In this document: piece after piece, positions 118-4,377 of the stretch
Layout of the letters: every line of letters begins with the position of its first letter
Position numbering within the stretch: position 1 is the stretch's first letter
Source: a virus
Taxonomy: Duplodnaviria; Heunggongvirae; Uroviricota; Caudoviricetes
Direction: 5' to 3' (one strand)
DNA: 4,377 bases
Virus record (IMG/VR): IMGVR_UViG_2579778674_000005
The notes under the pieces: model-generated
Databases searched by the model: none
Told to the model about the DNA's origin: nothing
The model's input: only the letters and a program-made list of their open reading frames with translations
Position numbers and translations under genes: made by a program

Positions 118-282
118 ATGGGTAAAGGCAGCAGTAAGGGGCATACTCCGCGCGAAGCGAAGGACAACCTGAAGTCCACGCAGTTGCTGAGTGTGATCGA
201 TGCCATCAGCGAAGGGCCGGTTGAAGGTCCGGTGGATGGATTAAAAAGCGTGCTGCTGAACAGTACGCCGGTGCTGGACTGA
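118..282 (+). CDS. J: J N-terminal fragment (54 codons) ending at the premature in-frame TGA
   Basis: ATG at 118 with an upstream SD; translation MGKGSSKGHTPREAKDNLKSTQLLSVIDAISEGPVEGPVDGLKSVLLNSTPVLD*; TGA at 280-282 lies inside a 12-nt insertion. Confidence 0.6.
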   Translation: MGKGSSKGHTPREAKDNLKSTQLLSVIDAISEGPVEGPVDGLKSVLLNSTPVLD

Positions 283-291
283 GTGCTGGAC
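271..291. repeat. Short tandem duplication: GTGCTGGAC, TGA, GTGCTGGAC (net 12-nt insertion relative to the contiguous reading)
   Basis: Read directly: ccgGTGCTGGACtgaGTGCTGGACactgag. The encoded VLD tripeptide is repeated around a TGA codon. Confidence 0.8.
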
Positions 292-1692
292 ACTGAGGGG
301 AATACCAACATCTCCGGCGTCACGGTGGTGTTCCGGGCCGGTGAGCAGGAGCAGACACCGCCGGAGGGATTTGAATCCTCCGGCTCCGAGGCGGTGCTGG
401 GTACGGAAGTGAAATACGACACGCCGATTACCCGGACCATCACGTCGGCAAACATCGACCGTCTGCGCTTTACCTTCGGTGTGCAGGCACTGGTGGAAAC
501 CACCTCAAAGGGGGACCGGAATCCGTCGGAAGTCCGCCTGCTGGTTCAGATCCAGCGTAATGGTGGCTGGGTGACGGAAAAAGACATCACCATTAAGGGC
601 AAAACCACCTCGCAGTATCTGGCCTCGGTGGTGGTGGGTAACCTGCCGCCGCGCCCGTTTAATATCCGGATGCGCAGGATGACGCCGGACAGCACCACAG
701 ACCAGCTGCAGAACAAAACGCTCTGGTCGTCATACACCGAAATCATCGATGTGAAACAGTGCTACCCGAACACGGCACTGGTCGGCGTACAGGTGGATTC
801 GGAGCAGTTCGGCAGCCAGCAGGTGAGCCGTAATTATCATCTTCGCGGGCGCATTCTGCAGGTGCCGTCGAACTATAACCCGCAGACGCGACAATACAGC
901 GGTATCTGGGACGGAACGTTAAAACCGGCATACAGCAACAACATGGCCTGGTGTCTGTGGGATATGCTGACCCATCCGCGCTACGGCATGGGGAAACGTC
1001 TTGGTGTGGCGGATGTGGATAAATGGGCGCTGTATGTCATCGGCCAGAATTGCGACCAGTCGGTGCCGAACGGCTTTGGCGGCACGGAGCCGCGCATCAC
1101 CTGTAACGCTTACCTGACCACACAGCGCAAGGCGTGGGATGTGCTCAGTGATTTCTGCTCGGCGATGCGCTGTATGCCGGTATGGAACGGGCAGACGCTG
1201 ACGTTCGTGCAGGACCGACCGTCGGATAAGGTGTGGACCTATAACCGCAGTAATGTGGTGATGCCGGATGATGGCGCGCCGTTCCGCTACAGTTTCAGCG
1301 CCCTGAAAGACCGCCATAATGCCGTTGAGGTGAACTGGATTGACCCGAACAACGGTTGGGAGACGGCGACAGAGCTTGTTGAAGATACGCAGGCCATTGC
1401 CCGTTACGGTCGTAATGTCACGAAGATGGATGCCTTTGGTTGTACCAGTCGGGGGCAGGCACACCGAGCCGGGCTGTGGCTGATTAAAACGGAACTGCTG
1501 GAAACGCAGACCGTGGACTTCAGCGTGGGTGCGGAAGGGCTTCGCCATGTACCGGGGGATGTCATTGAAATCTGCGATGATGACTATGCCGGTATCAGCA
1601 CCGGCGGGCGCGTGCTGGCGGTGAACAGCCAGACCCGGACACTGACGCTCGACCGTGAAATCACGCTGCCAAGCCGGGCTGTGGCTGATTAA
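283..1692 (+). CDS. J: J internal fragment (frame 1), from just after the premature TGA to the stop created by the duplication frameshift
   Basis: ORF from the supplied track (GTG at 283). Its translation continues the gpJ sequence (…[33 protein letters not shown]…) and terminates at TAA 1690-1692 inside the second repeat copy, read out of frame. Whether it is translated independently is unknown. Confidence 0.7.
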
Positions 1693-1876
1693 AACGGAAC
1701 TGCTGGAAACGCAGACCGTGGACTTCAGCGTGGGCGCAGAAGGGCTTCGCCATGTACCGGGCGATGTCATTGAAATCTGCGATGATGACTATGCGGGCAT
1801 CAGCACCGGCGGGCGCGTGCTGGCGGTGAACAGCCAGACGCGGACACTGACGCTCGACCGTGAAATCACGCTGCCA
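1467..1876. repeat. Imperfect direct tandem repeat, 2 x 205 nt (copy 1 1467-1671, copy 2 1672-1876), 199/205 identical
   Basis: Manual alignment of the two copies at a fixed 205-nt offset, with no gaps. Mismatches lie at 1530, 1533, 1557, 1590, 1593 and 1635 (copy-1 coordinates). Both copies encode the same peptide, [68 protein letters not shown], in different frames. Confidence 0.9.
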
Positions 1877-3814
1877 GCCTCCGGCACCACGCTGATAAGC
1901 CTGGTTGACGGGCAGGGGAGTCCGGTCAGCGTGGAGGTTCAGTCCGTCACCGACGGCGTGAAGGTAAAAGTGAGCCGGGTTCCTGACGGTGTTGCTGAAT
2001 ACAGCGTGTGGGGGCTTAAGCTGCCGACGCTGCGCCAGCGCCTGTTCCGCTGCGTGAGTATCCGTGAGAACGACGACGGCACGTATGCCATCACTGCCGT
2101 GCAGCATGTGCCGGAGAAAGAGGCCATCGTGGATAACGGGGCGCACTTTGACGGTGATCAGAGCGGCACGGTGAATGGTGTCACGCCGTCAGCAGTGCAG
2201 CATCTGACCGCCGAAGTCACTGCAGACAGCGGGGAATATCAGGTGCTGGCGCGATGGGACACGCCGAAGGTGGTGAAGGGGGTGAGCTTTATGCTTCGCC
2301 TGACTGTGGCAGCAGACGACGGCAGTGAGCGGCTGGTCAGCACGGCCCGGACGACGGAAACCACATACCGCTTCACGCAACTGGCGCTGGGAAACTACAG
2401 GCTGACAGTCAGGGCGGCAAATGCCTGGGGGCAGCAGGGCGATCCGGCGTCGGTATTGTTCCGGATTGCCGCACCGGCAGCACCGTCGCGGATTGAGCTG
2501 ACGCCGGGCTATTTTCAGATAACCGCCACGCCGCATCTTGCGGTTTATGATCCGACGGTACAGTTTGAGTTCTGGTTCTCGGAAAAACGGATTGCTGATA
2601 TCAGGCAGGTTGAAACCAGCGCGCGTTATCTTGGTACGGCGCTGTACTGGATAGCCGCCAGTATCAATATCAAACCGGGCCATGATTATTATTTTTACGT
2701 TCGCAGTGTGAACACCGTTGGCAAATCGGCATTCGTGGAGGCTGTTGGTCAGCCGAGTGATGATGCATCCGGCTATCTGGATTTTTTCAAAGGCGAGATA
2801 GGGAAAACCCATCTGGCTCAGGAGCTGTGGACGCAGATTGATAACGGTCAGCTTGCGCCTGACCTGACTGAAATCAGGACGTCCATTACGGATGTCAGCA
2901 ATGAAATCACGCAGACCGTCAATAAGAAACTGGAAGACCAGAGTGCGGCAATTCAGCAGATACAGAAGGTTCAGGTTGATACAAATAATAACCTGAACAG
3001 CATGTGGGCTGTGAAGCTGCAGCAGATGCAGGACGGACGCCTTTATATCGCGGGTATTGGTGCCGGTATTGAGAACACCCCTGACGGCATGCAGAGTCAG
3101 GTGCTGCTGGCGGCGGACAGGATTGCGATGATTAATCCTGCAAATGGCAACACAAAACCGATGTTTGTTGGTCAGGGTGATCAGATATTCATGAATGAAG
3201 TGTTCCTGAAATATCTGACGGCTCCCACCATTACCAGCGGCGGTAATCATCCGGCATTTTCCCTGACACCGGACGGGCGACTGACGGCGAAAAATGCGGA
3301 TATCAGTGGCAGTGTGAATGCTAACGCCGGGACGCTCAACAACGTTACGATAAATGAGAACTGTCAGATTAAAGGGAAACTGTCAGCCAACCAGATTGAA
3401 GGCGATATTGTCAAAACAGTGGGTAAGGCTTTTCCGCGGGACTCCCGGGCACCGGAGCGGTGGCCATCAGGGACCATTACCGTCAGGATTTATGACGATC
3501 AGCCTTTTGACAGGCAAATTGTTATTCCGGCGGTGGCATTCTGCGGCGCTAAACATGAGCGGGAGAATAACGATATTTATTCGTCATGCCGCCTGATAGT
3601 GAAGAAAAATGGTGCTGAAATTTATAACCGTACCGCGCTGGATAATACGCTGATTTACAGTGGTGTTATTGATATGCCAGCTGGTCACGGCCACATGACG
3701 CTGGAGTTTTCGGTGTCAGCATGGCTGGTAAATGACTGGTATCCCACAGCAAGTATCAGCGATTTGCTGGTTGTGGTGATGAAGAAAGCCACCGCAGGCA
3801 TCAGTATCAGCTGA
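1655..3814 (+). CDS. J: J C-terminal fragment (frame 2); the J-homologous part starts at about 1676 and includes FN3-like repeats and a divergent C-terminal receptor-binding region
   Basis: ORF from the supplied track (GTG at 1655). From [14 protein letters not shown]… onward it repeats and then continues the gpJ sequence, ending at TGA 3812-3814. The first 7 codons are not J-derived in this frame. Confidence 0.7.
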
Positions 3815-3832
3815 ATTTTATAACCCATATAC

Positions 3833-3857
3833 GGGCGCCAGAAATGGCGCCTTTTTT
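3833..3857 (+). terminator. Rho-independent terminator downstream of J (lambda tJ-like)
   Basis: A perfect GC stem (GGCGCC / GGCGCC, palindromic) with a 6-nt loop AGAAAT, followed immediately by TTTTTTATT, begins 19 nt after the J stop. On the minus strand the hairpin is followed by CGTATAT rather than a U-tract, so it is oriented for + strand transcripts. Confidence 0.8.
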
Positions 3858-3870
3858 ATTGCAGAAAAGC

Positions 3871-3876
3871 GAGAGG
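3871..3876 (+). promoter_or_regulatory. Shine-Dalgarno sequence (GAGAGG) for lom
   Basis: GAGAGG lies 5 nt upstream of the ATG at 3882. Confidence 0.6.
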
Positions 3877-3881
3877 TAATT

Positions 3882-4377
3882 ATGCGTAAAGTTTGTGCAG
3901 CCATTTTGTCCGCAGCCATCTGTCTGGCCGTATCCGGTGCGCCTGCATGGGCGTCTGAGCAGCAGGCCACACTGAGCGCAGGGTATCTTCATGCCCGTAC
4001 GAACGCTCCCGGCAGCGATAATCTGAACGGGATTAACGTGAAATACCGTTATGAGTTTACGGACACGCTGGGGCTGATTACGTCATTCAGTTATGCCAAC
4101 GCTGAAGATGAGCAAAAAACGCATTACAGCGATACCCGCTGGCATGAGGATTTCGTGCGTAACCGCTGGTTCAGCGTGATGGCGGGGCCGTCTGTGCGCG
4201 TGAATGAATGGTTCAGCGCGTATGCGATGGCGGGTATGGCTTACAGCCGTGTGTCGACTTTCTCCGGTTCGACTTTCTCCGGAGATTATATCCGCGTAAC
4301 TGACAACAAGGGGAAAACGCACGATGTGCTGACCGGAAGTGATGACGGTCGCCACAGCAACACGTCTCTGGCGTGGG
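3882..4377 (+). CDS. lom: Outer membrane protein Lom (Ail/Lom/OmpX/PagC beta-barrel family); 3' end lies outside the window
   Basis: ATG at 3882 with SD; frame open to the window edge with no stop. Translation MRKVCAAILSAAICLAVSGAPAWA|SEQQATLSAGYLHARTNAPGSDNLNGINVKYRYEFTDTLGL… has a typical Sec signal peptide with an AWA cleavage motif and matches lambda Lom as I recall it, in the same position immediately downstream of J. It is absent from the supplied ORF track, presumably because it has no stop in the window. Confidence 0.85.
   Translation, partial: MRKVCAAILSAAICLAVSGAPAWASEQQATLSAGYLHARTNAPGSDNLNGINVKYRYEFTDTLGLITSFSYANAEDEQKTHYSDTRWHEDFVRNRWFSVMAGPSVRVNEWFSAYAMAGMAYSRVSTFSGSTFSGDYIRVTDNKGKTHDVLTGSDDGRHSNTSLAW
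4254..4283. repeat. 15-nt tandem duplication within lom (TCGACTTTCTCCGGT / TCGACTTTCTCCGGA), in frame, encoding STFSG twice
   Basis: Read directly; 14/15 identical, and the single difference (GGT vs GGA) is synonymous. As I recall it, lambda Lom has a single STFSG at this position (…SRVSTFSGDY…). Confidence 0.8.

Follow-up and report, generated by a model that had tools for sequence, protein, structure and literature searches.

In a lambda-like prophage contig, the divergent tip of gene J is the commonest form in Escherichia coli and probably targets OmpC rather than LamB

We analyzed a window of 4,377 nucleotides (nt) from a virus of the Caudoviricetes (IMG/VR record IMGVR_UViG_2579778674_000005), which is the entire 4,377-bp contig AYKD01000101.1 of the draft assembly GCA_000511545.1. 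It carries gene J, the tail-tip (host specificity) gene of a lambda-like prophage, at positions 118-3814 on the plus strand, where it is broken into three open reading frames (ORFs). The initial annotation of the window had described the C-terminal third of J (nt 2790-3811) as mosaic and unlike that of phage lambda, and had proposed that it recognizes another receptor. Here, we find that this third carries a receptor-binding domain (RBD) about 92% identical to one that uses the porin OmpC, and that it is attached to a shaft that is also unlike lambda's. The sequence of this tip is not new: it is known, annotated in RefSeq, and common.

Protein comparisons were made with a repaired J, from which a 12-nt and a 205-nt insertion (see below) were taken out. 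The repaired protein has 1159 amino acids (aa) and its sole stop is at the end. When compared with the reference lambda J (NC_001416), residues 1-820, which comprise the hub, the fibronectin type III (FNIII) domains, and the immunoglobulin-like (Ig-like) domains, are 97.0% identical without gaps. This agrees with the initial annotation, according to which J resembles lambda up to about nt 2790 and diverges after the motif GYLDFFKG. The first diverged codon, E821, comes right after this motif at nt 2795, i.e., five bases away. Further downstream, the identity to lambda is 31% in the helical shaft (J 821-880), which has 28 additional residues, 59% in the upper fibre (J 881-960), 91% in J 961-1003, and 45% in the RBD (J 1004-1159). 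The conserved island noted inside the divergent third corresponds to J 961-1003. At the DNA level, in blocks of 60 nt, the identity to lambda is 82-100% up to nt 2794, 13-65% over 2795-3154, 87-93% at 3215-3334, and 42-63% in the RBD. The GC content decreases from 0.587 (118-2794) to 0.500 (2795-3811), a larger fall than in lambda J (0.583 to 0.541), and this drop at the module boundary is consistent with a distinct history of the distal modules. An identity to lambda gpJ of 90% or more in the C-terminal domain would have spoken against the divergence described in the annotation. The values in the RBD are clearly below it, at 45-47%, and the last 174 aa are 49.4% identical (tblastn). Hence, the RBD has no close identity to lambda J residues 965-1132, the LamB-binding RBD of lambda.

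The distal part of lambda gpJ comprises two FNIII domains, an alpha-helical shaft, a beta-sheet prism (the central straight fibre), and an Ig-like RBD with four bottom loops that insert into LamB (Ge and Wang, PMC11101478). Pfam searches with the repaired J returned FNIII-A_GpJ, Phage-tail_3, Ig_J, Ig_J_second, Phage_Tail_Tip (872-1000), and Ig_GpJ_C (1029-1159), which is the architecture of lambda gpJ. This full architecture lies in a tail gene cluster: lom is found downstream, and the corresponding gene of enterotoxigenic E. coli (ETEC) H10407 comes after homologues of the tape measure gene, M, L, K, and I. The window and lambda gpJ (P03749; 8xck, 8xcj, 8iyk) share the order of the domains (hub, FNIII, helical shaft, beta-prism, Ig-like RBD) and the fold of the RBD; lambda differs from the window's type in its shaft, 28 aa shorter, and in its receptor, LamB.

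To place the modules, we used a panel of full-length J proteins from H10407, 640R1, PhiR55_1, 2G7b, 4A7, mEp460, phi330, Stx2-1717, VT1-Sakai, and lambda, with A8 included in the comparison of the RBD. The alternative, longer shaft (J 821-880, nt 2795-2974; all features are on the plus strand unless stated otherwise) is the counterpart of the alpha-helical shaft of lambda, and is 95-98% identical to those of 640R1, PhiR55_1, VT1-Sakai, and Stx2-1717. It forms one module with the upper central straight fibre, or upper prism (J 881-960, nt 2975-3214), which falls within Phage_Tail_Tip and is 95-99% identical to the same four proteins. The single-sequence AlphaFold2 (AF2) model of shaft and fibre (nt 2720-3334) has low confidence, with a mean predicted local distance difference test (pLDDT) of 43.5 and blocks of 52-82 only around J 826-885, so that its helices at about J 812-836 and 842-896 are only weakly usable. 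These long helices would fit, if weakly, a shaft four heptads longer than that of lambda. Next comes the conserved island of the lower fibre, or lower prism (J 961-1003, nt 3215-3343), which is 86-93% identical to the panel except for Stx2-1717 (70%).

The receptor-specifying segment (J 993-1159, nt 3311-3811) is the counterpart of the piece grafted onto lambda J in two engineered chimeras, 1A2 and A8 (see below), with lambda residue 964 aligned to residue 992 of the window's J. The RBD itself spans approximately nt 3344-3811. Its Ig-like C-terminal domain (J 1029-1159, nt 3419-3811) matches Pfam PF12421, Ig_GpJ_C, with E = 2.7e-37 and 128.3 bits for a cutoff of 26.2, over profile positions 1-135 of 135. 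The structure prediction that had been proposed for this domain returned solved gpJ tips. The AF2 model of the last 174 residues of J (mean pLDDT 84.2), for which a word-indexed protein search yielding mostly short fragments was used only as alignment depth, is an Ig-like beta-sandwich matching the solved gpJ RBDs, and the top four Foldseek hits are 9wcb, 9wca, 8xck, and 8xcj (E from 5e-20 to 6e-17, template modelling (TM) scores of 0.71-0.72). Among these, the A8 gpJ (9wcb is the open state, with OmpC; 9wca is the closed state) has a TM score of 0.71 and 66% identity, and lambda gpJ (8xck, 8xcj) has TM scores of 0.71-0.72 and 48-49% identity. Sequence matches in the PDB gave E = 1.6e-142 for A8 gpJ and about 1e-120 for lambda J.

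Three loops of the RBD can be aligned with those of the J of phage phi330. The loop DSRAPERW (J 1036-1043, nt 3440-3463) aligns with the phi330 loop T918-Y921, the hairpin KHERENNDI (J 1073-1081, nt 3551-3577) with the hairpin E953-S962, and the loop VNDWYP (J 1132-1137, nt 3728-3745) with A1015-P1020. In an AlphaFold3 prediction for phi330, the hairpin E953-S962 enters the OmpC barrel and A1015-P1020 contacts the OmpC rim. The DSRAPERW loop is as long as that of lambda and exceeds its counterpart in A8 and phi330 by 6 residues, and the KHERENNDI hairpin is 6 residues shorter than in these two.

The modular exchange of the J tip is textbook knowledge, and the exchange of tip domains among lambdoid phages put forward in the initial annotation can be read directly from the panel. 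In the hub and FNIII part (1-820), 640R1, PhiR55_1, 2G7b, 4A7, and mEp460 are of the lambda type and 97-98% identical to the window (99.4% for H10407), while phi330, Stx2-1717, and VT1-Sakai are at about 71-77%. The shaft and upper fibre are of the long type in H10407, 640R1, PhiR55_1, VT1-Sakai, and Stx2-1717 (95-100%), and of lambda's short type in 2G7b, 4A7, and mEp460. Finally, the grafted segment is 92-100% identical to the window in H10407, PhiR55_1, 640R1, 2G7b, and VT1-Sakai, 65-69% in A8, phi330, 4A7, and Stx2-1717, 50% in mEp460, and 47% in lambda. Two phages carry opposite combinations of these pieces: 2G7b joins lambda's shaft and upper fibre to the window's RBD type, and Stx2 phage 1717 joins the window-type shaft and upper fibre to another RBD. 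Hence, the shaft and RBD modules recombine independently. By these alignments, the divergent third is made of at least two separately exchanged modules with the conserved island between them. The island (3215-3343) contains or adjoins the points at which DNA identity switches in 2G7b and 4A7 (near nt 3180) and in phi330 and Stx2-1717, and it is likely the recombination joint between the two modules. Andrews and Fields have reported that the J of the infant-gut phage Lambda_2G7b (NC_049954) matches lambda at >97% identity for 982 residues and at 40-60% for the final ~150. In our comparison, its RBD is 92% identical to the window's and its N-terminal part is lambda-like, and it keeps lambda's short shaft and upper fibre, unlike the window.

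Natural J C-termini have been grafted after residue 964 of lambda J in two chimeras, called A8 and 1A2, and the resulting particles use OmpC, not LamB (Brodel et al. 2024, Nature 632:877, PMC11338833). Since these grafts switch the receptor, the last ~167 residues (nt 3311-3811) are enough to set it and the shaft module is not needed. The initial annotation had thus correctly placed the determinant at the C-terminus, and had made it too long by assigning it to the last ~250 residues. The conserved joint at which shaft and RBD swap independently is the one that engineers have already exploited.

The sequence of 1A2 is given in the supplement of PMC11338833 as recoded DNA with errors of optical character recognition (OCR), and we read it by a frameshift-tolerant alignment instead of a plain translation. 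Among its last 178 residues, 166 match VT1-Sakai, the rest being OCR-damaged sites, so that the two are the same wherever the text is readable; the matches to the window, A8, and lambda number 152, 110, and 95, respectively. The grafted segment of the window, which corresponds to lambda residues 965 to the end, is in turn identical to VT1-Sakai at 153 of 167 positions (~92%) without gaps. The counts are 157 of 167 for both 640R1 and PhiR55_1, and 154-157 of 167, again without gaps, when 2G7b is added to these two. Because 1A2 follows VT1-Sakai and VT1-Sakai follows the window, 1A2 carries, as far as the alignment can be read, the RBD type of the window. The likeness is restricted to this segment: upstream of residue 964, the shaft and fibre of 1A2 are those of lambda and not those of the window, and the J of VT1-Sakai (Sp15) is truncated and has a different hub and FNIII part (~71% to the window).

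The 1A2 particles deliver DNA efficiently only to the EDL933 variant of OmpC (PMC11338833). In the source data of that study, delivery was 98.7% at a multiplicity of infection (MOI) of 233 in MG1655 carrying EDL933 OmpC, 5.2% at an MOI of 50 in wild-type, LamB-positive MG1655, and 2% in a lamB/ompC double deletion with K-12 (MG1655) OmpC; in the double deletion, delivery took place only when a suitable OmpC allele was supplied (PMC11338833). Hence, particles with this RBD type enter through OmpC and not through the LamB of K-12, with 1A2 failing to transduce LamB-positive K-12, and they discriminate between OmpC alleles. This makes OmpC the likely receptor of the window's RBD. A8 has also been found to depend on OmpC by experiment (PMC11338833), and its gpJ has been solved in complex with EDL933 OmpC ('OmpC G17', 9wcb). 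Its RBD is 99% identical to that of phi330, a phage whose plaques are lost when ompC is deleted and are restored by complementation. A8 and phi330 share with the window the RBD fold (TM 0.71) and an identical stretch at the start of the grafted segment. They nevertheless form a distinct RBD subtype, each 69% identical to the window with 9 gap positions, mostly in two loops: their hairpin (ENFNSNNQQS) is the longer one and their equivalent of the DSRAPERW loop the shorter one. They accept K-12 OmpC, which the 1A2 type does not.

To assess how common this tip is, we searched 5,426 complete E. coli genomes. At a coverage of 80% or more, the RBD (nt 3335-3811) had matches in 3,365 of them, with ~3,000 records at 90% identity or more. 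In contrast, the C-terminal third of lambda J was found at a coverage of at least 80% in only 95 genomes, and the top matches listed are laboratory strains, of which three are DE3 lysogens. By these counts, the form that had been described as a divergent variant predominates among the J tips of E. coli, and that of lambda is rare. In other words, the LamB-binding tip of lambda is the exception among E. coli prophages and the window's type is the norm. Nt 2790-3811 of the window have a match of 100% identity in the gpJ of ETEC H10407, which is annotated and intact, and in two other complete genomes. Among sequenced phages, the C-terminal third has 92-95% DNA identity to isolated temperate phages and O157 prophages, and functional phages with this RBD type include 2G7b, 640R1, and PhiR55_1. 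The tip is thus ordinary, being the commonest in E. coli and having near-identical copies known from experiment to bind OmpC. It has little weight as a discovery, as earlier work has linked a near-identical RBD functionally to OmpC and built it into engineered delivery vectors.

The explanation that we favour, and regard as likely as a whole, is that nt 2795-3811 specify the distal portion of a lambda-like prophage's trimeric central tail fibre, with two exchangeable modules unlike those of lambda and a conserved joint (J 961-1003) between them. The first module provides a longer alpha-helical shaft and the upper beta-prism (J 821-960). The second provides an Ig-like RBD, in the segment J 993-1159, of the type found in VT1-Sakai, Lambda_2G7b, 640R1, PhiR55_1, and the '1A2' gpJ. 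In an intact J, the bottom loops of this RBD would most likely dock on OmpC, a trimeric porin, instead of LamB, and would favour certain OmpC alleles. As we infer from lambda, docking would then trigger the same twist of the fibre and the opening of the tail tip. The analysis shows the boundaries of the modules, the homology and fold, and the prevalence, and the OmpC dependence is shown for the ~92%-identical RBD.

That this exact allele has OmpC as its receptor is, by analogy with 1A2, probable, and several observations weigh against a firmer statement. Within the 167 grafted residues, 14 differ between the window and VT1-Sakai/1A2. Three of the differences (R1076K, N1078H, and N1079T, from the window to VT1-Sakai/1A2) fall in the hairpin that aligns with the phi330 hairpin predicted to enter OmpC, and a fourth (D1134N) is in the loop aligned with the predicted rim-contact loop. 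Receptor shifts of J need just one to four substitutions: the J of phage 21 moved from LamB to OmpC by a single mutation and then to OmpF, and lambda J has evolved to use OmpF (PMC11101478). In addition, two of the three variable loops have the length found in lambda, a LamB binder, and not that of A8 and phi330, 1A2 had to be read from an OCR-damaged supplement, and J is interrupted by duplications in the contig. It is because of the loop differences, and of the ease with which a few substitutions shift the receptor, that we put the use of OmpC by this allele at no more than probable.

These observations feed two other views of the receptor. One is that the RBD still binds LamB, perhaps a variant other than that of K-12. 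The loop lengths shared with lambda would fit it, as would the fact that phage 21, with another diverged J, natively uses LamB. However, the RBD is only 47% identical to that of lambda, and the ~92%-identical RBD of 1A2, which reaches just 5% delivery to LamB-positive MG1655, works in a lamB deletion with EDL933 OmpC. We thus find LamB binding very improbable. Of the two proposals of the initial annotation, a receptor unlike lambda's agrees with both identities, 47% to the LamB-binding RBD and ~92% to the OmpC-using 1A2 type, and a different LamB variant is unlikely. The other view is that the receptor is another outer-membrane protein, e.g., OmpF, or that several porins are used, the specificity having been moved by the loop substitutions relative to 1A2. 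The 4 of 14 differences that fall in loops aligned with predicted OmpC-contact loops speak for it, and so does the small number of substitutions sufficient for J to shift. Yet the number of differences is conservative, some of the sites have the window's residue in PhiR55_1 and 640R1 as well, which makes them resemble ordinary polymorphism within the type, and no member of the 1A2/VT1-Sakai type is known with another receptor. Taken together, this makes such a shift unlikely. We found no receptor data for the PhiR phages in the Laub-lab papers. A related and rather doubtful idea is that the H10407-type allele may recognize OmpC alleles, or a second porin, outside the coverage of 1A2 and A8, given that R1076, N1078, N1079, D1134, and a cysteine at 1070 differ from 1A2/VT1-Sakai. 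If true, it would offer a useful extra specificity for engineered lambda particles.

A last explanation concerns the state of the gene and not the receptor: J would have no present function, either because it is a decaying prophage gene or because paralogous J genes were mis-assembled, the allele as written not being in the cell. We give this about an even chance. In the window, J is split into ORFs at 118-282 (54 aa), 283-1692 (469 aa), and 1655-3814 (719 aa), with no intact full-length reading frame; the same C-terminal module is intact in H10407. A direct duplication of 12 nt at 271-282 (GTGCTGGAC TGA GTGCTGGAC...) places an in-frame TGA at 280-282, after J codon 54; it is absent in lambda, in H10407, and in the best matches among complete genomes. 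A tandem duplication of 205 nt (1464-1668 and 1669-1873), with copies 97% identical and six mismatches, causes a +1 frameshift; neither H10407 nor any of the top matches among complete E. coli genomes has it. With a third duplication of 15 nt in lom (see below), the 4.4-kb contig has three tandem duplications, none of which is in the closest complete genomes. The window with its duplications as written was not found in complete E. coli genomes, where the best matches are in two pieces or lack the 12 nt.

The part of J upstream of the large repeat also differs from its closest relative. The H10407 gpJ (WP_000515474.1, NC_017633.1 1326189-1329668) is an intact protein of 1159 aa, followed by the same lom, and the repaired J is at least 99% identical to it in every segment. 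The window departs from it by the duplications of 12 and 205 nt and by an identity of only 97% in the 5' 1.7 kb. The identity to H10407 thus switches from 97% before the 205-nt repeat to ~100% after it, which suggests either that paralogous J genes were joined wrongly or that a real recombination left a scar. No complete E. coli genome exceeds 98.0% identity to the 5' 1.7 kb, and this half is a patchwork of alleles: among its 49 variable sites, 15 match one J copy of H10407, 17 match the second copy, and 17 match neither. Given this split, the source of the 5' half is, at these sites, not simply H10407-like. A collapse of the two H10407 J copies was considered for the 5' half and rejected on these counts.

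E. coli genomes have a median of 2-3 copies of J, and a multi-copy prophage gene on a short contig of its own tends to be collapsed. The duplications may thus be assembly artefacts. Given the duplications, the 5' patchwork, the number of J copies per genome, and the short, lone contig, a collapsed or chimeric assembly is as plausible as a real decay of J. The J of VT1-Sakai, an Stx1 prophage, lies at 753-4225 of the VT1-Sakai sequence as two overlapping ORFs annotated as 'truncated by a mutation', so well-finished genomes also contain disrupted J genes with this RBD type. A loss of function would nevertheless touch only the 5' half, given that nt 2790-3811 is fully identical to an intact gene in three complete genomes, and it is compatible with the explanation that we favour, not opposed to it. 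As judged from these identities, the C-terminal module is unaffected by the disruptions, being intact and identical elsewhere. Since J is interrupted in the contig, the domain probably does not belong to a functional tail here, and any function applies to an intact allele, e.g., that of H10407.

The two prophage J genes of H10407 differ in their 5' halves, can be told apart at just one site in the 3' 2.7 kb, where they are almost identical, and are accompanied by identical Lom. This suggests recent gene conversion or module sharing between the resident prophages.

Downstream of J in the window, a terminator-like hairpin followed by a T-run is found at 3833-3860 (hairpin at 3833-3852; GGGCGCC AGAAA TGGCGCC). 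It has an 8-bp stem with 6 G-C pairs, followed by TTTTTATT, and a rho-independent terminator is annotated at the same position in mEp460. The gene lom, which encodes an Ail/Lom outer-membrane protein according to the gene call, Pfam Ail_Lom, and the annotation of H10407, starts at 3882 and runs off the contig end at 4377. It has a 15-nt tandem duplication at 4254-4283 (TCGACTTTCTCCGGT twice), without counterpart in H10407, that adds STFSG in frame. Finally, a 353-aa ORF lies antisense to J at 2189-3250 on the minus strand, where it probably results from codon composition on the sense strand.

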